From a phage: a stretch of 64,000 nt of DNA. Within the stretch, counting starts at the first letter, position 1. Every line of letters begins with the position of its first letter. The translations under genes were made by a program, and so were the position numbers. Shown piece by piece: positions 4,022 to 39,485 of this stretch. Under the pieces are notes generated by a model. It was not told the origin of the DNA. It saw only the letters and a program-made list of their open reading frames with translations, and searched no databases. The stretch lies in sequence record PZ445521.1; one strand, given 5' to 3'.

Positions 4022-5246
<1,225 letters not shown>

Positions 5247-6678: not shown

Positions 6679-8266
<1,588 letters not shown>

Positions 8267-24989: not shown

Positions 24990-24994
24990 ATTGA

Positions 24995-25017
24995 GGGAGC
25001 CTTCGGGTTCCCTTTTT
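24995..25017 (+). terminator. rho-independent terminator after gene 35
   Basis: gggagcc-ttcg-ggttccc hairpin followed by TTTTT. Confidence 0.65.
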
Positions 25018-25725: not shown

Positions 25726-28700
25726 ATGGCTACTTTAAAACAAATACAATTTAAAAGAAGCAAAACCGCAGGTGCACGTCCTGCTGCTTCAGTATTAGCC
25801 GAAGGTGAATTGGCTATAAATTTAAAAGATAGAACAATTTTTACTAAAGACGATTCAGGAAATATCATTGACTTAAGCATTTCCGCTGGCGGTAATATCA
25901 GTGGTAATATCACTCAAACTGGTGATTATACACAGACTGGAAAATTTAATTTAATTGGCCCGCAGATTATAGCAAGTGGTGGATATATTGAGTTTAATTA
26001 TCGTACTACTGGAAGTGGGGCTTGGTCCGGTCAACACACTGCAAAGGCTCCAATTTTTGTAGATTTAAGCTCAGCTACTTCCACATCTGAATATAATCCT
26101 ATAATTAAACAGCGCTTTAAAGATGGAACTTTTTCATTAGGTACTTTAGTTTCTGAAGGTTCGTTGAAGATTCATTATATTGATGAAACTGGTCAATCTA
26201 AATATTGGACATTTGCGCGCTCAGGTAATTTTCAAGTTGATTCTGGTAATTTATTAGTATCTGGTGGGTATTTAGTCGCTCAGAGTAATATTGAAACAAG
26301 AACAGGTTCTTTGATTGGTCCATCTGTTGTAACTAAAAATATTTCATTTGATACGAAAGCGTTTGGACAATACGATTCGCAGTCATTAGTTCAATATGTT
26401 TATCCTGGAACTGGTGAAACAAACGGAATTAATTACCTTCGTAAATTCCGTGCAAAATCTGGTGGTACGATTTATCATGAATTAGCTTCTGCACAAACCG
26501 GAAAAAGTGATGAACTGTCTTGGTGGACCGGTAATACAGCCGTTAATAAACAAATGGGCCTTCGCAATGATGGGTCTTTAGTGTTGCGACGCTCACTCGC
26601 AATTGGTACAATTACAACAGATGAAAACATTAATAATTACGGCTCAACTGGAGCAATGGGTGAATGCTATATAGTCATTGGAGATGCCGCAACTGGTGTA
26701 TCATATAAAAGATCTGGTGTATATGATTTAGTTGCTAATGGTCTTTCTATCGCGTCTATTACTCCTGACAGTTTCCGTAGTACTCGTAAAGCATTATTTG
26801 GACGTTCAGAAGACCAAGGCGGAACATGGAATATGCCTGGAACGAACGCCGCGTTTTTATCGGTTCAAACACAGGCTGATGAAAACACTGCTGGAGACGG
26901 TCAAACCCATATTGGATATAACTCTGGCGGTAAAATGAACCACTATTTCCGTGGTAAAGGAAAAACTAATATTAATACTCAAGAAGGCATGGAAGTTAAC
27001 CCGGGTATTTTGAAATTGGTAACTGGCTCTAATAATGTAATGTTTTATGCTGATGGCGGTATTACATCTGTTAAGCAGCTTTCAATATATAACGGCATAT
27101 ATTTAGCAGCTAATAATTCTACTGCTGGGCTAACATTCGCTCCAACTACTACAATTGATGGCACTAAGCAAATTTTGTGGGAAGGCGGTACTCGTGCTGG
27201 TCAGAATAAAAGCTATGTAACTGTTAAAGCATGGGGTAATTCATTTAACGCATCTGGCGATCGTAATCGTGAAACGGTTTTTGAAGTAGCTGATGGACAA
27301 GGATATTATTTTTATTCACAGCGTGTGGCTCCAAGTGGCTCTGAAACTACTGGGCCTGTTGTAACCCAGTTCAATGGACAAGTTAATGCTAGAGGAAGTA
27401 TTATTACTGACGGAAGTTTTAAAGTTAATGGATTAAGCACTTTAGTCGGTAATGTTACCATGTCTAATGGTTTGTTTGTTCAAGGTGGTTCTTCTATTAC
27501 AGGCCAAGTAAAAATTGGTGGAACAGCAGATGCATTAAGAATTTGGAATGCTGAATACGGGGCTATTTTCCGTCGTTCTGAAGATAAGCTTTATATTATT
27601 CCAACTCCGCAGAATGCTGGTGAATCAGGTGGTATTTCTAATTTACGTCCGTTCTATATTACATTAAGTACTGGTAAAGTTTCCATGGATCATGATGTAG
27701 ATATCGGCGGCGGTAGATTTAAAGTAGAAGTGGCTGGAACTACGGCTGGTCAACGTATTATAGTTAATGCAGCGAGCGATGCTATTAGAATAAATGCTCC
27801 AACACAAGAGTCTTCTAACTTCATTCAAGGACGTAAGGCTGATGTGAATAAATGGTATTTGGGTATTGGCGATGGCGGCAACGTCGTTCGTATGCACAGC
27901 TACACATATTCACATGGTATTGCATTAAATTCTGATTCTGTCGATATTACTAAGCCTCTTAAAGTCGGAAACGCCCAACTAGGAACTGACGGTAATATTA
28001 CCAATGGTTCAGGAAACTTTGCCAACTTAAATACCACGTTAAATCGTAAAGTTAATTCTGGATTTATTACTTATGGAGCAACCTCTGGATGGTATAAGTT
28101 TGCAACTGTAACAATGCCACAATCCACTTCAACAGTCTTCTTTAAAATAGTTGGAGGTTCTGGATTTAATAGCGGATTATTCACACAATGTAATATTGCT
28201 GAAATTGTTTTACGTACTAGTAATGAAAGACCTGCTGACTTAAATGCTGCATTATACACAAGAACAATTGGAGCTGCATTTAAAGATATTGCAGTTAATA
28301 ACGTCTCTGGAGATACATATGACATTTATGTTTCTGCTGGAACATATTGTAATCAATTAGCTTGTGAGTGGTCATGTACCGAAAATGCTACTGTTAGTGT
28401 TATTGGTATTAACTCATCTACACAATCACCTGTAGATGCTCTTCCAGATACAGCAGTTAACGGTCAAGTTGCTAATGTTCTTAATAACTTGGTTGATCGC
28501 GGTAAAGTTAAGCGTTATGAAGCCGATTCTGAAATAGCTATTAATAGCCCAACCGGTATTCGTATCAGAAGCAATGGCGATAAAACTGGTTCTGTGGCTA
28601 CAATGTTACGAAATGATGGCGGTAGTTTTTATATTCTGTTTACAGATAAAAATGCCACCGATGGCGCAGCAACTGTTAATGGTGATTGGAATAGTAAACG

Positions 28701-29487
28701 TCCTTTCGCAATTAACTTAACAACCGGCGAAGTGATGATGAATAATGGCATAGCTGTTCGCAGCGCTGCTTTATTCTATAATAGCATAAACGTCAAAGAT
28801 AATGGTTCTATTAACTTTGATAAATCAGGTGCTAACCCGAGAAATATGAGAATATTTCATGCTGGCGATGCTTCTCGCGGTAACCGTATTGAAATTGCCG
28901 ATGAAACTAACTATATTGCTTACTTTGAAAAAACTCCAGGTGGAGCTAACCGCTTTGTAGTAAATAATGCTACTGTGGCTGGTGTTAATCAAATGAATTC
29001 ATTTGGTATTAACATCAATAACGCACTTGGTGGAAACAGTATAGCATTTGGTGATAATGACACTGGCATTAAACAATCCGGTGACGGACTTCTTGATATC
29101 ATTACTAACGCCGCACGACGAATGAGATTCCAGACGGGTGACACTTATTCTGACATGAATATAAATGCTCCAAACGTTTATATTCGTTCTGATATTCGTT
29201 TGAAATCTAATTTCAGACCTATTGAAAATGCTCTTGAAAAGGTTGAGCAGCTTGATGGTTTAATCTATGATAAAGCTGACTATATAGGTGGTGAAATTGT
29301 TCAGACTGAAGCAGGTGTTATTGCTCAGAAATTGAACGAAGTATTACCTGAAGCAGTTCGTGAAGTTGAAGATATTAAGGGTAATAAAATACTCACTATT
29401 TCTTCTCAATCCCAGATTGCTCTTCTAGTTGAAGCTGTGAAAACACTTTCTGCTCGTGTAAAAGAACTTGAATCTAAACTTATGTAA
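25726..29487 (+). CDS. 37: gp37 long tail fiber distal subunit (T2-type, 1253 aa)
   Basis: ORF MATLKQIQFKRSKTAGARPAASVLAEGELAINLKD...; followed by separate gp38 adhesin. Confidence 0.9.
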   Translation: MATLKQIQFKRSKTAGARPAASVLAEGELAINLKDRTIFTKDDSGNIIDLSISAGGNISGNITQTGDYTQTGKFNLIGPQIIASGGYIEFNYRTTGSGAWSGQHTAKAPIFVDLSSATSTSEYNPIIKQRFKDGTFSLGTLVSEGSLKIHYIDETGQSKYWTFARSGNFQVDSGNLLVSGGYLVAQSNIETRTGSLIGPSVVTKNISFDTKAFGQYDSQSLVQYVYPGTGETNGINYLRKFRAKSGGTIYHELASAQTGKSDELSWWTGNTAVNKQMGLRNDGSLVLRRSLAIGTITTDENINNYGSTGAMGECYIVIGDAATGVSYKRSGVYDLVANGLSIASITPDSFRSTRKALFGRSEDQGGTWNMPGTNAAFLSVQTQADENTAGDGQTHIGYNSGGKMNHYFRGKGKTNINTQEGMEVNPGILKLVTGSNNVMFYADGGITSVKQLSIYNGIYLAANNSTAGLTFAPTTTIDGTKQILWEGGTRAGQNKSYVTVKAWGNSFNASGDRNRETVFEVADGQGYYFYSQRVAPSGSETTGPVVTQFNGQVNARGSIITDGSFKVNGLSTLVGNVTMSNGLFVQGGSSITGQVKIGGTADALRIWNAEYGAIFRRSEDKLYIIPTPQNAGESGGISNLRPFYITLSTGKVSMDHDVDIGGGRFKVEVAGTTAGQRIIVNAASDAIRINAPTQESSNFIQGRKADVNKWYLGIGDGGNVVRMHSYTYSHGIALNSDSVDITKPLKVGNAQLGTDGNITNGSGNFANLNTTLNRKVNSGFITYGATSGWYKFATVTMPQSTSTVFFKIVGGSGFNSGLFTQCNIAEIVLRTSNERPADLNAALYTRTIGAAFKDIAVNNVSGDTYDIYVSAGTYCNQLACEWSCTENATVSVIGINSSTQSPVDALPDTAVNGQVANVLNNLVDRGKVKRYEADSEIAINSPTGIRIRSNGDKTGSVATMLRNDGGSFYILFTDKNATDGAATVNGDWNSKRPFAINLTTGEVMMNNGIAVRSAALFYNSINVKDNGSINFDKSGANPRNMRIFHAGDASRGNRIEIADETNYIAYFEKTPGGANRFVVNNATVAGVNQMNSFGININNALGGNSIAFGDNDTGIKQSGDGLLDIITNAARRMRFQTGDTYSDMNINAPNVYIRSDIRLKSNFRPIENALEKVEQLDGLIYDKADYIGGEIVQTEAGVIAQKLNEVLPEAVREVEDIKGNKILTISSQSQIALLVEAVKTLSARVKELESKLM

Positions 29488-29488
29488 A

Positions 29489-29517
29489 AGAGGGCTTCGG
29501 CCCTCTAAGGATTTTTT
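29489..29517 (+). promoter_or_regulatory. UUCG stem-loop between 37 and 38 overlapping gene 38 RBS region
   Basis: agagggc-ttcg-gccctct hairpin then aaggatttttt; ATG of 38 at 29519. Confidence 0.5.
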
Positions 29518-29518
29518 A

Positions 29519-30304
29519 ATGGCAATTGTAGGTGTTCCTGGCTGGATTGGTGAATCTGCCGTGAATGAAACTGGACAACGTTGGATGGATGCTGCAATGA
29601 GAGCAGTCCGTGTTTCAGTTCCCGGTTGGATGAGCTCAATGGCCGGACAATCTAAAGAAGTATATTATAGCATTGGTGCTAGTAATTCTTATAATAAAGA
29701 TACATTAATAAACTGGATAAAAGCACAAGGGTCCACGCCTGTTGTTATTACTATTACAGGAAATATTGTTTCTCAATCTACTGGTGTTCCATGCTTAGAT
29801 TTTCCTAGCTCATTAACTAATGCATACGTGACACTTAATATCAATTCAGGCGTGCATGTTTGGGGCCGTGGCGGGAATGGCGGAAATAACTCTGCAGGTG
29901 GAGCAGGAGGAACTGCAATAAATAATGGAATTGGAACTAGATTGCGTATTAACAACAATGGTGTTATCGCAGGAGGCGGTGGCGGCGGTGGCGGCGGATA
30001 TTATTCTCCTTTTTCACAAATGAAATTGACTTTTGGCGGTGGCGGCGGTCGTCCATTTGGTGCTGCTGGCGGGTCTGCTAATATGGAACAGGGCGCTACT
30101 GCTGGTACTATTTCTGCACCTGGTAAAGGGTCTGTCAATGGTATCTATAATGGCGGGAATGGCGGTGATGCTGGTGCCGCAGGTGGTAAATGTAATATTC
30201 GTGGGCAAGGATCAGAATATAACGGCGGTGCGGCTGGTAAAGCTGTTACTGGTAATGCTCCAACTTGGACTAAGGTTGGTACAATATATGGTTCAAGAGT
30301 ATAA
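29519..30304 (+). CDS. 38: gp38 tail fiber adhesin with glycine-rich motifs (T2/T6 type)
   Basis: 261 aa from MAIVGVPGWIGESAVNETGQRW.. with GGGGGGGGGYY and GGGGGRPFGAAGG glycine-rich blocks; track ORF has 17-codon upstream extension. Confidence 0.85.
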   Translation: MAIVGVPGWIGESAVNETGQRWMDAAMRAVRVSVPGWMSSMAGQSKEVYYSIGASNSYNKDTLINWIKAQGSTPVVITITGNIVSQSTGVPCLDFPSSLTNAYVTLNINSGVHVWGRGGNGGNNSAGGAGGTAINNGIGTRLRINNNGVIAGGGGGGGGGYYSPFSQMKLTFGGGGGRPFGAAGGSANMEQGATAGTISAPGKGSVNGIYNGGNGGDAGAAGGKCNIRGQGSEYNGGAAGKAVTGNAPTWTKVGTIYGSRV

Positions 30305-33792: not shown

Positions 33793-33816
33793 CGTTTTGT
33801 GAAAAAAATTTTAAAA

Positions 33817-33843
33817 TAAAAAAGGGAGAGCCTCGGCTCTCCC
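33817..33843 (-). terminator. stem-loop terminator after small ORF downstream of gene 52
   Basis: gggagagcc-tc-ggctctccc hairpin with flanking A-run on plus strand. Confidence 0.55.
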
Positions 33844-33848
33844 TAAAA

Positions 33849-33998
33849 TTACTGCATGACTGTGATAACTGTCATGATAACACGTTGAATGCCGAACGCA
33901 AGAAGACCTCCTGCTACGGCTGGAACAACACCTACCCCCGCTAGTAAAATGCCGCCAGATACTAATGCTGCGCTTGTAATACCTATAAATGGACTCAT
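33849..33998 (-). CDS. small membrane protein (49 aa), not in ORF track
   Basis: ATGA overlap with gene 52 stop; RBS GAGGAAA; MSPFIGITSAALVSGGILLAGVGVVPAVAGGLLAFGIQRVIMTVITVMQ. Confidence 0.5.
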   Translation of the reverse strand: MSPFIGITSAALVSGGILLAGVGVVPAVAGGLLAFGIQRVIMTVITVMQ

Positions 33999-35323
33999 TT
34001 GATTTCCTCTAAATCTTTAGTGTATTCTGTAACTACATCAGTAGTTTTCCAATATTCGTTTTCTTCTTTCTTAGCTTTAGCTTCTTCAGCAAGTTTCTTT
34101 GCTTCGTCGGAAGTCATATGAAAAATATTCATTCCGACTAGTTTATCAACATAAGAAGAATACATATCAATTTTAGAAAGTTCTTCGGTCAGTTCTTTGC
34201 GAGTTTTACCCTGTACAACGATTTCACCTGAAATTACTTTCTTAATGAAATGTGCCTTGGCAAAGGCTAAACGAAATGCTGATTCAGTTTCTTTGATTTT
34301 GTTATCAATTCGTTTTTGGACATAAGTTTTACGAACTTCAACGAAGTCTTTGATTAAATCAACTACGTTATCGTAAACTTGTAGCTTTCCTTTCTCATTA
34401 ATAACGGTAATATTTTGGGAACGACGCTCAATCAACCCGAAGTCTTTCATAATTTTCGCGTGACGTTCTTCTTCGTTATCGCTCAAAGCGTATTCTTTGC
34501 GGAATTTAACTTTAAAGCCAAAACCATGCTCACCACAAGCATCATCCCATGTAATGAAGCCTTTATCTTCAAGTGGGTCTAAGATTTTACTCACATAAGT
34601 TTCACGATCATACTTATACGGAATCTCAGTGATGTGCATTTGAGTTCGTGAAGTAAACTTATATGTTCCACGAATTTCATATTGTCCATCAATTTCAACG
34701 ACTTCACCACGAAATTCTGGGAATTCTACCTTCGGTTTAGTTACTTTCTTTCCTTGAAGAGCTTGTAGTACAGCTTTCTTGACAGAAGAAACACTATGAG
34801 GAAGAATGTAAGTTGCATAACCAGTTGCAATACCGGAAACGCCATTAAGAAGAACAGTAGGAATAATAGGCAAATAGAAAGCAGGCGGAATGTGTTCTTT
34901 ATCTTGATGTACCGGAGCATACTCAGTATCTTTATATACACTATAGAAATTTTTACTTACACGAGCAAAAATATAACGACTTGCTGCTGCTTTTTGGACA
35001 GTACGAGAACCAAAGTTTCCTTGACCATCTAACAGAGGAAAGTTATTATTCCAAGTGTTAGCCATCAAAGCACCTGCGTCTTGCGCAGAGTTTTCACCAT
35101 GATGATATCCAAGGTCCGCTACACCACCTGCAATAGAAGCGAGTTTGTGAAACTTATCTTTATTTCCTCGTGCCAAATCAAGAGCTCGAGCAATAACAAA
35201 TCGTTGAACTGGCTTAAATCCATCAATCATATTTGGAATAGCACGATTTTCAACCGTGTACATAGCATAAGCCAATGCTTCATTATCAATGATACTTTTT
35301 AAATCGCGATTATTCAGTTGCAT
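33995..35323 (-). CDS. 52: gp52 DNA topoisomerase II medium subunit
   Basis: 442-aa ORF MQLNNRDLKSIIDNEALAYAMYTVENRAIPNMIDGFKPVQRF.. (GyrA-like). Confidence 0.9.
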   Translation of the reverse strand: MQLNNRDLKSIIDNEALAYAMYTVENRAIPNMIDGFKPVQRFVIARALDLARGNKDKFHKLASIAGGVADLGYHHGENSAQDAGALMANTWNNNFPLLDGQGNFGSRTVQKAAASRYIFARVSKNFYSVYKDTEYAPVHQDKEHIPPAFYLPIIPTVLLNGVSGIATGYATYILPHSVSSVKKAVLQALQGKKVTKPKVEFPEFRGEVVEIDGQYEIRGTYKFTSRTQMHITEIPYKYDRETYVSKILDPLEDKGFITWDDACGEHGFGFKVKFRKEYALSDNEEERHAKIMKDFGLIERRSQNITVINEKGKLQVYDNVVDLIKDFVEVRKTYVQKRIDNKIKETESAFRLAFAKAHFIKKVISGEIVVQGKTRKELTEELSKIDMYSSYVDKLVGMNIFHMTSDEAKKLAEEAKAKKEENEYWKTTDVVTEYTKDLEEIK

Positions 35324-35327
35324 AAAT

Positions 35328-35468
35328 TTACCATACTAGTGAATGTAGTGCCATAATAACATCAGAAATGAAAAGCACGACTTGAATTAATCCGAACATT
35401 ACTCCATAATATAGTGCTACTAATAAAGTAGCAAGGGCTAATGAATAGCCCAAGATTTTCTTAATCAT
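35328..35468 (-). CDS. small hydrophobic protein (46 aa), not in ORF track
   Basis: ATG overlapping ac stop; MIKKILGYSLALATLLVALYYGVMFGLIQVVLFISDVIMALHSLVW; stop 4 nt before gene 52 ATG. Confidence 0.5.
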   Translation of the reverse strand: MIKKILGYSLALATLLVALYYGVMFGLIQVVLFISDVIMALHSLVW

Positions 35469-35619
35469 TAGTAGATAACAACACAAATGTTAAATATGCA
35501 CACATACCCTGAGCTAAAGCTTGCGAAAACACACTGCTGGCATCAATACAGATAGTTAAAACACATGCTACTATCCAACAAATAAATGAAATAACTCCTA
35601 ATAATTTTGCAATATTCAT
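35461..35619 (-). CDS. ac: putative Ac (acridine sensitivity) membrane protein, 52 codons
   Basis: MNIAKLLGVISFICWIVACVLTICIDASSVFSQALAQGMCAYLTFVLLSTND; located between stp and 52 as in T4; RBS GAGGAAAA. Confidence 0.55.
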   Translation of the reverse strand: MNIAKLLGVISFICWIVACVLTICIDASSVFSQALAQGMCAYLTFVLLSTND

Positions 35620-35626
35620 ATTTTCC

Positions 35627-35707
35627 TCACTGGAGTCCGAAGACGCCTTTGGTTTTAAGATTGTTACGATAGAACTGCATCACGTGTTCGTTGTGGAAAT
35701 TACTCAT
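35627..35707 (-). CDS. stp: Stp peptide (26 aa), modulator of host EcoprrI restriction / PrrC anticodon nuclease
   Basis: [26 protein letters not shown] matches T4 Stp as recalled (one difference); ATG overlaps ndd stop. Confidence 0.75.
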
Positions 35708-36165
35708 TAATATGCCTGTAAAACAAATTTAAAGTTATCAGCCAACATACGGTTCATTTCTTCAAGTGTTTGATACTCAGAATGATGATTACGAGTAAAC
35801 GCCAAAGCTAACTGACCTTTACCAAATCCCGTCGTCAGAGGTTTCATCTTAGAAGCAGGCAGATAAAACACTGTGTATGGAACATTGTTATTTGCAATAG
35901 TACGCGCAAGTTGAGACCGGCGTTGACGAATATGACTTAAAACCGCACTGAATCCTTGCTTAGAACGCTGATTACCTACATAAAATCGTGCTGACACACA
36001 TGGATTACTAAATGGACGACCATCTAATTTACTTACTAAAAAGTAAAATCCAGGTTTAGATAAAATGTCTTTATGCGGAGTTCCCAAAAACCATTCACCG
36101 CCCTTGATTGTGCCAATAACAGTAGCGCCTGCATTATTCAGATCAGTAACAGTCATGTATTTCAT
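35707..36165 (-). CDS. ndd: Ndd nucleoid disruption protein
   Basis: 152 codons from [26 protein letters not shown].. with GAGGAAA RBS; track ORF extends 16 codons upstream. Confidence 0.85.
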
Positions 36166-36225
36166 ATTAATTTCCTCTAAATTATTTTCTACTCCAAGGC
36201 CGCATGAATACACACGGCCATTAAA

Positions 36226-36441
36226 TTACTCGTCGCAGTCGACGCTCAATTCCCAGAATTCTTCTACGGTATAAGTTTCAGTATCATTTTCAATACAGAA
36301 ACGTTCATTACTGTTATTTGCTAAAGTAGCGTTAACTGTCATTTTCTCGCTAGTGCTCTTAAGAGGTGAAATACGAATTAACTGATCACCATTATCTAAA
36401 CAAAAAATTTCACCAACTTTTACATCTTTAAAGCTTTTCAT
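36226..36441 (-). CDS. hypothetical protein (ndd-denB cluster)
   Basis: ORF track. Confidence 0.5.
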   Translation of the reverse strand: MKSFKDVKVGEIFCLDNGDQLIRISPLKSTSEKMTVNATLANNSNERFCIENDTETYTVEEFWELSVDCDE

Positions 36442-36449
36442 AATTCACC

Positions 36450-36560
36450 TCAAGGAGTATAAAATCCAAATGCAGTTGTTGACCATCCCATCCAATATGG
36501 GAAATTTGCACCAATGTAAAACATAAGAATATAAAACCAACCGCTCAGCAAATTCATCAT
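36450..36560 (-). CDS. tiny membrane protein (36 aa), not in ORF track
   Basis: MMNLLSGWFYILMFYIGANFPYWMGWSTTAFGFYTP; ATGA-type overlap upstream. Confidence 0.4.
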   Translation of the reverse strand: MMNLLSGWFYILMFYIGANFPYWMGWSTTAFGFYTP

Positions 36561-36754
36561 TTTACACCGTTCCAAATTGTTTCAACCACAGATTTTAAAC
36601 CATTTTGATGAATATCCATTCCGACTACTGCCATCAAATAGATTCCAACTACAACTGAACCTAAGGCAAAAATCAGCATGAAAATGAATAAAGCCGGAAA
36701 AATATTATCGAAAAACCATTCAATAAATGTAAAAGCACTGCGTTTACGCTTCAT
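36557..36754 (-). CDS. small membrane protein (65 aa); start trimmed to ATG with GAGGAAAA RBS
   Basis: ORF track 36557..36775; internal Met at 36754 has good RBS and avoids overlap. Confidence 0.5.
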   Translation of the reverse strand: MKRKRSAFTFIEWFFDNIFPALFIFMLIFALGSVVVGIYLMAVVGMDIHQNGLKSVVETIWNGVK

Positions 36755-36761
36755 ATTTTCC

Positions 36762-36875
36762 TCACATAAATCCAAAGTAAACGTTTAATACATCAATCAT
36801 TAAAACGATTGGGAATATACTCAAAACTATTAGTATTATAACTACATTCCATATAGCTTTAACAATCTTTTTCAT
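36762..36875 (-). CDS. tiny membrane protein (37 aa)
   Basis: MKKIVKAIWNVVIILIVLSIFPIVLMIDVLNVYFGFM with GGAGG RBS; track ORF 36762..37010 extends through upstream promoter. Confidence 0.5.
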   Translation of the reverse strand: MKKIVKAIWNVVIILIVLSIFPIVLMIDVLNVYFGFM

Positions 36876-36940
36876 TTTCTGTTCCTCCGTAGTTGATAGG
36901 GTAATAGTACCACGGAAGAACAGTCTTGTAAACAACTTTT

Positions 36941-37039
36941 TTAAAAATATTCGTAATAAATGTGAATACCAATCACTACTGCCGAAACTTGTGCAACCAA
37001 CCATGCACACGCAATAAGTACAGAATTCAAAATTTTCAT
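36941..37039 (-). CDS. tiny membrane protein (32 aa), not in ORF track
   Basis: MKILNSVLIACAWLVAQVSAVVIGIHIYYEYF; ATGA overlap with next ORF. Confidence 0.4.
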   Translation of the reverse strand: MKILNSVLIACAWLVAQVSAVVIGIHIYYEYF

Positions 37040-37122
37040 AATAACCTCATCACAAAAGTAAATGTTAAACAAATTACTGGAATACTAATTAACCAAACAA
37101 AACACCACCATAATGAACTCAT
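37036..37122 (-). CDS. tiny membrane protein (28 aa), not in ORF track
   Basis: MSSLWWCFVWLISIPVICLTFTFVMRLL; ATGA overlap with upstream ORF stop. Confidence 0.4.
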   Translation of the reverse strand: MSSLWWCFVWLISIPVICLTFTFVMRLL

Positions 37123-37382
37123 AGTTCAATCTCAGCGATTTTCATTTCACTACTATTAATAGCCGCTTTAAGACTATCTGAAAGAATTACATTCCAGTGG
37201 TCATTCATATGACCATTAACTAAGCGTGTAATTTCTTCAGGAGTTGAAAAATAAGGCTGATCAGACTCCCAATGCGATAATCCTAAGCGAGTATAAATCA
37301 TGCCTTCATCATCGCTAGAATATTCAACTGACACAAACTCATCAGTTATTTTATGTTTAGCGTAATAAAATTTAAATTTCAT
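37119..37382 (-). CDS. hypothetical protein (87 aa); start trimmed to ATG after GGAG RBS
   Basis: Track ORF 37119..37484 reads through the promoter cassette; internal Met MKFKFYYAKHK has ggagaataaaATG context. Confidence 0.5.
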   Translation of the reverse strand: MKFKFYYAKHKITDEFVSVEYSSDDEGMIYTRLGLSHWESDQPYFSTPEEITRLVNGHMNDHWNVILSDSLKAAINSSEMKIAEIEL

Positions 37383-37416
37383 TTTATTCTCCAAATCCGT
37401 ATCAGTTGATAGTTGT

Positions 37417-37446
37417 ATAGTACCACGGTCCTTGTGGTATGTAAAC
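37417..37446 (-). promoter_or_regulatory. T4-type early promoter (GTTTAC-N18-TACTAT)
   Basis: Cassette 37408..37458 is about 50/51 identical to 16026..16076. Confidence 0.6.
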
Positions 37447-37465
37447 TGTTTTGTGAAATTTTTTT

Positions 37466-38023
37466 TTAAATGGAAAGATACCATCCGTTGTAGTTGCTTT
37501 TTCTTACAACCTTACGAAGGTCTTCTCTGTCACCGATGAACTTCGGAGTGTACTGGATGACACCTGGATGAATTTCTTTAGTGTTGAATATAATTATACA
37601 GTCAGCGACTTGATGATTTAGAATGGGCCCTAGATTTATTCCAGAACCGTATGGATACTCTCCGCTGCATCCTGTTGTTACAGAAATCCAACGTGAGTCA
37701 GTTTGGTGTGTCTTAACTTCTACACGAAGCCCGCAGTATCTTGGATGCGCCAATACATCCCATGCGTATGTATACGGGTCATTAACATCCTCTTGGCCTT
37801 TATTGACATATCCGCTTAGCCAATCTGCTACAAAAAATTCTGCGTACACAGCGATACGACATCTTTCAATAACTTCTGCTTTATCCTGGTTCGGGTTTTG
37901 TTTTAAAGAGTATCTTGCTGTATCAGCAATTTTGACCTTCATTTCACTAGTCAAGTCACTGTTCGATAGGGTAAATGTCGGAATCTGAAATAGTCTCTGT
38001 AAACCCGGATTCGTTTTCTGCAT
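37466..38023 (-). CDS. denB: endonuclease IV
   Basis: 185-aa ORF located beside rIIB as in T4. Confidence 0.8.
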   Translation of the reverse strand: MQKTNPGLQRLFQIPTFTLSNSDLTSEMKVKIADTARYSLKQNPNQDKAEVIERCRIAVYAEFFVADWLSGYVNKGQEDVNDPYTYAWDVLAHPRYCGLRVEVKTHQTDSRWISVTTGCSGEYPYGSGINLGPILNHQVADCIIIFNTKEIHPGVIQYTPKFIGDREDLRKVVRKSNYNGWYLSI

Positions 38024-38285
38024 TTAGACTTTCCTTTTTACCGCTGAGATAAGCGTTATATACTTTAAGAGTGCCATAATAAATTCGGTCATTTTCATCT
38101 AAAGACTCGCGGTCAAGTTCATCGAGCTCCTTTTTATCCATGACTATAACATCATTACAGTAAAGAAACCCAAGTTTTTCGTGACCAAACTCAAATTTAT
38201 TACAGTACACAATATTAGCGTGATGATTTCCGTGCAGTTTAATCTCTTTTATGTCGGAATCACCGATATTCATACAATAAATCAT
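37956..38285 (-). CDS. hypothetical protein overlapping denB 5' end
   Basis: ORF track 109 aa; 68-nt out-of-frame overlap with denB start. Confidence 0.4.
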   Translation of the reverse strand: MIYCMNIGDSDIKEIKLHGNHHANIVYCNKFEFGHEKLGFLYCNDVIVMDKKELDELDRESLDENDRIYYGTLKVYNAYLSGKKESLNAENESGFTETISDSDIYPIEQ

Positions 38286-38304
38286 AATTTTTCCTTAAAA
38301 CAAA

Positions 38305-38318
38305 AGGGCCGAAGCCCT
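38305..38318 (-). promoter_or_regulatory. C(UUCG)G intercistronic stem-loop
   Basis: agggc-cgaa-gccct (UUCG loop on minus transcript) between stop of 38324..38518 ORF and RBS of next gene. Confidence 0.55.
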
Positions 38319-38323
38319 TTATT

Positions 38324-38518
38324 TTACTTGAATTGTGCAATTCTTTTCTCTAGACATTCAGCATAAGATTTCATTGAGATGAACTGTGAAAGCAGCAGTT
38401 CTTGCTCAACTGCACTAACTGTTAGAAACTTTGCGCTTTCTAAAAATTTACTCAGTGCATTAATTTTGAGCATTAATTGATCGTATTCTTCTTTTACTCG
38501 TGCTTGATAACCTAACAT
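38324..38518 (-). CDS. hypothetical coiled-coil-like small protein
   Basis: ORF track; flanked by two identical stem-loops. Confidence 0.5.
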   Translation of the reverse strand: MLGYQARVKEEYDQLMLKINALSKFLESAKFLTVSAVEQELLLSQFISMKSYAECLEKRIAQFK

Positions 38519-38533
38519 AATTTTCCTTAGTTA

Positions 38534-38547
38534 AGGGCCGAAGCCCT
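38534..38547 (-). promoter_or_regulatory. C(UUCG)G intercistronic stem-loop after rIIB
   Basis: Second copy of agggccgaagccct immediately 3' of rIIB stop. Confidence 0.55.
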
Positions 38548-39485
38548 TATTTAAATTGTTCAGTAACGTCTTCAACTACTTCGTATTGGCAGGTACGCAT
38601 TTTAGCATCGTTGTAATCAATCGGAATTGATACTACATCACGCGGATGTACTTTAACTTTTACGACTCGGCTGGTTGAACTGCCAAAGTGACGAATATAA
38701 GATTTAGAACACACATGCAGACCACGAGAACAAGTTTGTGTATCATCGTCATTCACACGAGTACGTGGCATTTTAACTACTTTACCCGGACTGTTATCAA
38801 AGGTGTTTGAGTGACAGTCAAAGTAATTGCTGCGAACTACTTTCCAAGCATAGAAGTAACCATCTTCTGTAATTTCAATATCGTTTGCTACCAAGAAATC
38901 AAAGAGTCGAGATACCGCTTTTTGGCTTGGGTTTTCCAGCAGATTTTCCAAGAACGGAAAATAAAATTCAAAGTTTTCGCCTTTTTCCATCGAATCAAGA
39001 ATACGATCAACTAAACCAGACCGCAATTCAATATTTTGATAGAACAAGCTTCCACCTTCAATTCGAACATCGCCGGAAATATATTTTTCAACAGCGCGAC
39101 GAACATTAATTTTTTGTGCAGCTTCTTCCAGCCTATCCGCTACAAGCAGATTAAGAATTTCCTGGAAGTTTGAATGAGTATTAGGAGTTGCGTTATAAGT
39201 TACACCGTCAACAGTAATTGAAATGAATTTTTTAGATGCATTCCAAATAATGTCAGATTTAGCAACTGGAGCAATAACTGCATCGCTATTAACTTTAACT
39301 GTAATATCACCGCTAATAGTAACTTTAGAGCGTTTAGCTTCTTCAGCATTTTTCAAAACACGACGGATTGTGTCAACCGATACATCCTTCCAATAAGCTA
39401 ATTCCTGTTGGGTATAATTACCACTTGAATACAGTTTAACAATTTCAGCTTGTTCGTTTTTGGTCAGGCATTTAATATTGTACAT
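38547..39485 (-). CDS. rIIB: rIIB membrane-associated protein
   Basis: 312-aa ORF MYNIKCLTKNEQAEIVKLYSSGNYTQQELAYW.. Confidence 0.9.
   Translation of the reverse strand: MYNIKCLTKNEQAEIVKLYSSGNYTQQELAYWKDVSVDTIRRVLKNAEEAKRSKVTISGDITVKVNSDAVIAPVAKSDIIWNASKKFISITVDGVTYNATPNTHSNFQEILNLLVADRLEEAAQKINVRRAVEKYISGDVRIEGGSLFYQNIELRSGLVDRILDSMEKGENFEFYFPFLENLLENPSQKAVSRLFDFLVANDIEITEDGYFYAWKVVRSNYFDCHSNTFDNSPGKVVKMPRTRVNDDDTQTCSRGLHVCSKSYIRHFGSSTSRVVKVKVHPRDVVSIPIDYNDAKMRTCQYEVVEDVTEQFK

Follow-up and report, generated by a model that had tools for sequence, protein, structure and literature searches.

In bacteriophage T4, the Stp peptide inhibits restriction by EcoprrI and in doing so activates the anticodon nuclease PrrC, which is otherwise latent and held by this type IC restriction enzyme; restriction by EcoprrI and EcoR124I is blocked by Stp, while that by type IA enzymes is not (PMC3014915, PMC1484252). 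The cleaved tRNA-Lys is mended by the T4 polynucleotide kinase and RNA ligase 1 (PMC3014915, PMC1484252), the pseT product healing the ends cut by PrrC and the rnlA product resealing them (PMC3014915). The N-terminal 18 residues of Stp are almost absolutely conserved and the rest is polymorphic, the Stp suppressor mutations, which cause loss of function, cluster at residues 4-14, and loss of the 8 C-terminal codons lowers both Stp activities only moderately (PMC3014915). Both type IC inhibition and PrrC activation are known for the T4 peptide only, which carries Arg at residue 25 (PMC3014915).

The genes beside stp in T4 are less fully described. Loss of ac results in resistance to acriflavine, and expression of ac sensitises E. 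coli (bioRxiv 10.1101/2025.06.30.662393). In the mechanism proposed for Ac, which comes from a single 2025 preprint, the protein becomes inserted into the membrane and stops efflux by AcrAB-TolC (bioRxiv 10.1101/2025.06.30.662393; cited in PMC13250531). The viable T4 deletion saDelta9 removes the whole block from 52.1 to denB (PMC6071114) and gives half the normal burst, with phosphatidylglycerol synthesis no longer stimulated (PMC6071114). It was in T4 mRNA that hairpins with UUCG tetraloops, which are extra-stable, were discovered (Tuerk et al. 1988, summarised in PMC4371310).

The DNA analysed here, referred to as the window, is a stretch of 64,000 nucleotides from a phage (PZ445521.1). Judged from the sequence, the phage is of the T4 type and belongs to the genus Tequatrovirus. 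The T4 proteins from pseT through rIIB are collinear with the window at 94-100% identity. The region considered is the 380 bp at 35328-35707, where the DNA aligns with that of T4 and RB27 at 99% identity, and over 701 bases around it there is 100% identity to both Shigella phage JK38 (MK962755, Tequatrovirus zeezee23) and Escherichia phage vB_Eco_QOTSP (OY720014), with hundreds of other T4-like phages 98-99% identical to the same 701 bases.

In the ORF listing, the minus strand of this region carries three consecutive small ORFs, while the plus strand has only ORFs of 21-22 codons. The upstream neighbour is ndd (35707..36165, minus strand), encoding a nucleoid disruption protein 98% identical to T4 Ndd, and the downstream neighbour is gene 52 (33995..35323, minus strand), encoding a topoisomerase II medium subunit 99.3% identical to T4 gp52. 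A sequence-only reading of this DNA had recovered by hand translation a 26-aa frame called Stp, a 52-codon membrane protein in the ac position, and a 46-aa hydrophobic peptide; their sequences, lengths, and coordinates are borne out by the listing. These are stp (35627..35707, minus strand; ATG, 26 aa and a TGA stop), ac (35461..35619, minus strand; ATG, 52 aa, MNIAKLLGVISFICWIVACVLTICIDASSVFSQALAQGMCAYLTFVLLSTND), and 52.1 (35328..35468, minus strand; conserved ATG at 35468, 46 aa, MIKKILGYSLALATLLVALYYGVMFGLIQVVLFISDVIMALHSLVW). The order and spacing are those of the T4 reference, ndd, stp (81 bp), ac (156 bp), 52.1 (141 bp), and 52, and the annotation of RB27 has the same gene order as T4. 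In keeping with Tevenvirinae synteny, stp comes immediately after ndd and before ac. We are highly confident that the 380 bp would be the three known small early genes stp, ac, and 52.1 of a T4-type phage, with their activities taken from the T4 literature, and we infer that the three peptides are translated in the PZ445521.1 phage.

The sequence-only reading had also joined all of the genes by overlapping start and stop codons, which holds at two of the junctions and fails at the other two. The start of stp overlaps the stop of ndd by 1 nt (TAATG), and ac and 52.1 overlap by 8 nt (ATGATTAA). Between stp and ac there is instead a 7-nt spacer (TGA-GGAAAAT-ATG), with the GAGGA ribosome-binding site of ac (35624-35628, minus strand) straddling the stp stop codon, and between 52.1 and gene 52 there is a 4-nt spacer (TAA-ATTT-ATG). 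Since 52.1 lacks a ribosome-binding site and starts at an ATG within the last codons of ac, its translation is probably coupled to that of ac.

Alignment with T4 stp and ac, which had been put forward as the check on these assignments, supports them. Stp is identical to T4 Stp (NP_049878) at 25/26 residues; residues 1-24 are identical and R25L is the sole difference, so that the N-proximal 18 residues, including residues 4-14, are intact. It scores 71.3 bits against the Pfam family PF08133, 'Anticodon nuclease activator family' (Pfam cutoff 25 bits), its residues 1-26 aligning to positions 1-26 of the model. It also matches phrog_6763 (E=4.3e-20), and it is hydrophilic (GRAVY -0.72). The role that had been ascribed to it, interference with EcoprrI and consequent release of PrrC, agrees with the T4 literature (PMC3014915, PMC1484252). 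All 51/51 residues of T4 Ac (NP_049877) are present in the window Ac, with one inserted Thr before the C-terminal ND (LLSTND vs LLSND), a 52-aa form common to RB27, SfPhi01, PhiZZ23, and JK38. The assignment of the 52-codon frame to ac is upheld by a match to phrog_2501 (E=3.7e-25) and by its hydrophobicity (GRAVY 1.42, maximum 19-residue hydropathy 2.74), although a Pfam search of Ac gave no family, and it is annotated 'acridine resistance protein' in JK38, QOTSP, RB27, and T4. The 46-aa hydrophobic peptide, left unnamed before, is the product of T4 gene 52.1, being identical to T4 gp52.1 (NP_049876) at 45/46 residues, with A14T common to RB27 and SfPhi01. It matches PF24129 (DUF7396) at 81.9 bits over residues 1-46/46 (Pfam cutoff 27 bits) and phrog_3595, and its GRAVY is 1.68.

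Open frames of 26-52 codons often arise by chance in AT-rich DNA, and the ORF listing gives 52.1 as 35328..35486, a 52-aa frame with a TTG start to which the ATG at 35468 is internal. This would allow that at least one of the three is open by accident, or that 52.1 starts at TTG 35486, possibilities to which we give next to no credence. The genes were compared codon by codon with progressively more distant relatives, and synonymous and non-synonymous differences were counted for the annotated reading frame as well as for both frames shifted from it. In the annotated frames of all three genes the differences are mainly synonymous, and in the shifted frames nearly all are non-synonymous: 6 synonymous and 5 non-synonymous for stp against P896 (1/11 and 0/12 when shifted), 6 and 0 for ac against SfPhi01 (0/6 and 1/5), and 16 and 7 for 52.1 against ECML-359 (3/20 and 2/21). 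The comparison of ac with ECML-359 was uninformative, the two being too diverged for an ungapped comparison. The frame-specific synonymous bias in each gene, the full-length Pfam and PHROG matches, and the tiling of the entire 380 bp by three genes on one strand all stand against chance. The ATG start and 46-aa length of 52.1 are kept in T4, T2, SfPhi01, ECML-359, and P896, and the TTG-extended 52-aa version was rejected, as the family model and all homologs begin at the ATG. The pattern of codon differences indicates that purifying selection acts on each of the three frames. Together with the identities to the T4 peptides, the bias marks the genes as real and more than chance.

The sequence-only reading had suggested that T4 Stp has Arg where Leu25 was read, and this is the case: the codon is CTC for Leu25 in the window and CGC for Arg25 in T4, the base at position 35634 being T on the minus strand and G in T4. 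Among approximately 830 phage records with a Stp-like match, the exact 26-aa peptide with Leu25 is present in 3 (JK38, QOTSP, and JLBYU31), and the bulk of the remainder differ from the window peptide by one residue. Leu25 was found in 0/5 loci in IMG/VR, all of which have Arg, using a pattern degenerate at the Leu/Arg base in the same sequence context, and in 0/16 metagenomic stp loci, using a degenerate N-terminal coding pattern. Two haplotypes carry it. In JK38, QOTSP, and the window the sequence is that of PhiZZ23 apart from base 35634, while JLBYU31 is, within stp, the same as T4 apart from the Leu25 base; the informative sites flanking Leu25, 17 nt upstream and 101 nt downstream of it, differ between the haplotypes. 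This pattern suggests either two independent origins of the allele or a short conversion tract.

The rarity of the allele, the loss of a positive charge, and its possible double origin, on PhiZZ23-like and T4-like backgrounds, might be taken to mean that Leu25 makes a functionally altered Stp, one which keeps anti-restriction but triggers PrrC less, or is retuned to another type IC enzyme. We consider this very unlikely. The same residues within the N-proximal 18 serve both activities, and removal of the last 8 codons reduces both moderately (PMC3014915). In an alignment of ten homologs that spans T4 and siphoviruses, hardly any variation is seen at residues 1-18, whereas position 25 is occupied by R, L, F, S, K, N, or E, with some homologs ending at residue 25, and a short conversion tract would also account for the two haplotypes. 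Leu25 is outside the functionally critical N-proximal 18 residues, and Stp with Leu25 is probably functional. Because it is in a polymorphic and largely dispensable C-terminal tail, the replacement of Arg25 by Leu most likely leaves Stp activity unaffected, although with the allele rare and the charge lost a quantitative effect on Stp is conceivable.

The same base is also part of an RNA hairpin. In T4, stp codons 21-26 (GGC GTC TTC GGA CGC C) fold into a hairpin with a fully paired 6-bp stem, in which a C-G pair closes a UUCG tetraloop; the hairpin ends 3 nt upstream of the ac ribosome-binding site. In the window (35632..35647, minus strand; GGCGTC-TTCG-GACTCC) the Leu25 base turns a C-G pair of the stem into a C.U mismatch, which is uncompensated, Gly21 remaining GGC. 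The T4-type GGCGUC-UUCG-GACGCC has a folding energy of -10.0 kcal/mol (z -4.3), as against -4.2 kcal/mol (z -1.4) for the window allele, in which the UUCG loop and its closing pair are present and the stem is interrupted, with 3+2 bp. The hairpin is kept in every other myovirus-type stp examined, those of the T4 group, of the Gaprivervirus phages ECML-359 and P896, and of two diverged metagenomic lineages in which Stp ends GVFGRL; the changes within these conserved hairpins are G.U wobbles or a UUUG loop only. In the siphovirus stp genes GVFG is spelled with different codons and the hairpin is absent, as it is from the T2-type tail.

Elsewhere in the window, CTTCGG occurs 31 times, against approximately 13 expected from base composition, and 11 of the sites lie in stems of 4 bp or more, many of them immediately following the ends of genes (rIIB, denB.1, gp37). 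These stems are classical T4 UUCG hairpins, examples being those at 38549-38532, 38320-38303, 336-315, 54649-54628, and 60549-60530 on the minus strand and at 24993-25014 and 29489-29506 on the plus strand. In the record of phage vB_EcoM-G28 the stp hairpin is annotated as a putative terminator. A canonical intrinsic terminator was rejected for this site, which is followed by AGUGAGGAAAAUAUG with no U-tract and is absent from the terminator scan output.

It might therefore be asked whether the G-to-T change at 35634 acts at the level of RNA, the weakened hairpin altering mRNA stability, processing, or the translation of ac and 52.1, or perhaps allowing read-through into 52. The size of the fold drop, the uncompensated mismatch on two haplotypes, the retention of the hairpin in all of the myovirus-type genes when siphovirus copies encode the same GVFG without it, the known UUCG hairpins of T4 mRNA (PMC4371310) and their frequency just after gene ends in the window, and the G28 label would be in keeping with this, and it has a small, though not negligible, chance of being correct. 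No pair in the stem has changed on both sides, so there is no double-sided covariation, and third-position variability inside the hairpin (2/5) is indistinguishable from that outside (11/19); the GVFGR peptide and shared ancestry could thus explain the conservation. The stp hairpin has no documented function, it lacks the U-tract of a canonical terminator, and the window allele still folds. An E-value mode Rfam scan of 35100-36300 found no RNA family. Given the covariation and third-position results, selection on the hairpin RNA is possible and is not claimed. A broader proposal, that the change is non-neutral because the base is in a dual-coded peptide and RNA site under selection, possibly independently on two Tequatrovirus haplotypes, is in our view unlikely. 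If it were true, removal of Arg25 and destabilisation of a conserved hairpin could retune PrrC triggering or the expression of ac and 52.1. A change neutral for Stp activity is the preferred reading, and Leu25 provides a natural variant for probing whether the Stp tail, or the UUCG hairpin embedded there, matters.

By analogy with T4, the product of stp would be a soluble peptide of 26 residues, which by binding EcoprrI, the type IC complex of the host, would stop restriction of DNA and incidentally unmask the associated PrrC. Cleavage of tRNA-Lys would follow, and the products of pseT and rnlA would then repair the tRNA. Both of these genes are in the window on the minus strand, pseT (polynucleotide kinase/3'-phosphatase) at 4024..4926, with 301/301 residues covered by tblastn at 95.3% identity, and rnlA (RNA ligase 1) at 6682..7803, with 374/374 residues covered at 98.1% identity. 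By gene content, the phage side of the classical T4 Stp / PrrC / Pnk-Rnl1 circuit is complete. Growth on prr-positive E. coli had been put forward as a further check. It would be uninformative for the wild-type phage, as both pseT and rnlA are intact and their products are described as undoing the damage done by PrrC.

The second gene, ac, would, by the same analogy, encode a 52-residue membrane peptide that makes infected cells sensitive to acridines. The slot that it occupies differs between phages. In the T2 record AP018813 (L006) ac has a nonsense codon, Ser11 TCA being TAA, and is ac-null with 52.1 intact downstream. In the Gaprivervirus phage P896 (L009) the slot holds an unrelated 54-aa hydrophobic ORF (MSTVFSFIYMIAVVVL...) between conserved copies of stp and 52.1, and in ECML-359 there is a strongly diverged 51-aa Ac. 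P896 and ECML-359 suggest that the position of ac is a cassette in which one membrane peptide can be exchanged for another.

The 52.1 gene is intact and conserved where ac has the nonsense codon, in T2, and where it is replaced by the unrelated ORF, in P896. Its product is predicted to be a small inner-membrane peptide functionally independent of Ac. It would be a 46-residue, very hydrophobic, highly conserved putative membrane peptide (DUF7396), the function of which is unassigned in T4 also. The small membrane peptides of the 52.1-to-denB block are candidates for the saDelta9 effect, with no link to 52.1 specifically. Inside 52.1, at 35406-35451 on the minus strand, there is a small hairpin (GGGCTATTCATTAGCCC) followed by a promoter-like TTGCTA-17-TATTAT directed toward gene 52, which is not distinguished from chance level; the equivalent positions inside 52.1 of phage vB_EcoM_Lutter are annotated as a terminator and a promoter.

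Downstream of stp on the minus strand of the scanned stretch, a terminator-like site with a good T-run is found only once, after motA.1 (33823..33844, minus strand), as a strong hairpin that has a 9-bp stem with 6 GC pairs and a TTTTTTATTTT tail. This is the probable end of an ndd-stp-ac-52.1-52-motA.1 transcription unit. In a scan of 33800-38700 there were 20 promoter-like sites against 17.1 expected, which is chance level, and therefore no promoter claim is drawn.

There are other differences from T4 in the window. Between ndd.6 and denB an ORF missing in T4 is present at 37119-37484 on the minus strand; from the ATG at 37382 it is 87 aa and matches phrog_2390 (unknown function), and from 37484 instead it is 121 aa and overlaps the 3' end of denB. 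Between denB and denB.1, where T4 has only an 82-bp gap, there is a 109-aa ORF (37956-38285, minus strand; Pfam DUF7418, phrog_2237) that overlaps the start of denB. The long tail-fibre tip is also unlike that of T4, with gp37 at 25726-29487 and gp38 at 29519-30304, both on the plus strand. The window gp37 is 1253 aa, with its first 640 residues only 59% identical to T4 gp37, and after it the place of the T4 gp38 assembly chaperone is taken by a gp38 adhesin of the T2 type, which has glycine-rich repeats (Pfam GP38, Gp38_N).

The stp gene is frequently missed. It is unannotated in the closest records (MK962755, OY720014, OK272473 (JLBYU31), and OP870144/OP870145); the JK38 record has neither stp nor 52.1, and stp is missing from that of QOTSP. 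In most of the 60 top tblastn matches only ndd is listed in the region of the stp match, and several records name ndd 'naphthalene 1,2-dioxygenase', apparently through a mix-up of gene symbols. Homologs of Stp are widespread in siphoviruses of approximately 45-50 kb (Drexlerviridae, Kagunavirus, Akiravirus), and the tblastn matches include 135 Salmonella-phage and 24 Klebsiella-phage records. Here too stp is mostly in stretches without an annotated feature. In the extracted loci, the siphovirus-type stp is at 1501-1578 for Raoultella phage RP180 (L010), where the first 24 residues are those of T4 Stp, and at 1501-1581 for Tls (L011), where it is approximately 1.2 kb upstream of a polynucleotide kinase gene; it is also present in L012, L013 (Salmonella phage Akira), and the metagenome loci L024, L026, L027, and L036. 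In metagenome loci L030 and L025 the stp frame continues past the usual stop to give 74 and 59 aa, appearing in L030 to be fused to the downstream ORF; these long frames could be real fusions or assembly errors.

The genes stp, ac, and 52.1 are known from earlier work, and public databases already contain this very DNA. There is nothing biologically new in this locus, and the finding is correct but ordinary, serving mainly as a quality check. It does demonstrate that reading by hand recovered three real genes below the usual ORF-size cutoffs, and that annotation pipelines evidently drop a well-characterised anti-restriction peptide. The sole oddity is the rare change from Arg25 to Leu in Stp, by the same base that weakens a small RNA hairpin.

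Of the described systems, the locus is closest to that of T4, in which Stp (PF08133 Nuclease_act) has the same 26-aa length, the same location after ndd, and the same TAATG overlap, with Arg25 (CGC) where the window has Leu25 (CTC). T4 Ac is in the same position behind the same GAGGA ribosome-binding site and is likewise hydrophobic, at 51 aa rather than the 52 of the window, and T4 gp52.1 has the same 46 aa, the same 8-nt overlap with ac, and the same 4-nt gap to 52. The C(UUCG)G hairpins of T4 mRNA have exactly the motif seen at the 3' end of T4-type stp, there with a 6-bp stem; that of the window differs from them in its C.U mismatch and in being inside a coding sequence and not between genes. 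The siphovirus Stp, as in phage Tls (YP_001285494), shares the N-terminal M-S-(N/S)-(F/W)-H-N-E-H-(V/I)-M-Q-(F/W)-Y-R, but its gene is in another genomic context, not beside ndd and ac, with different C-terminal tails and without the UUCG hairpin.
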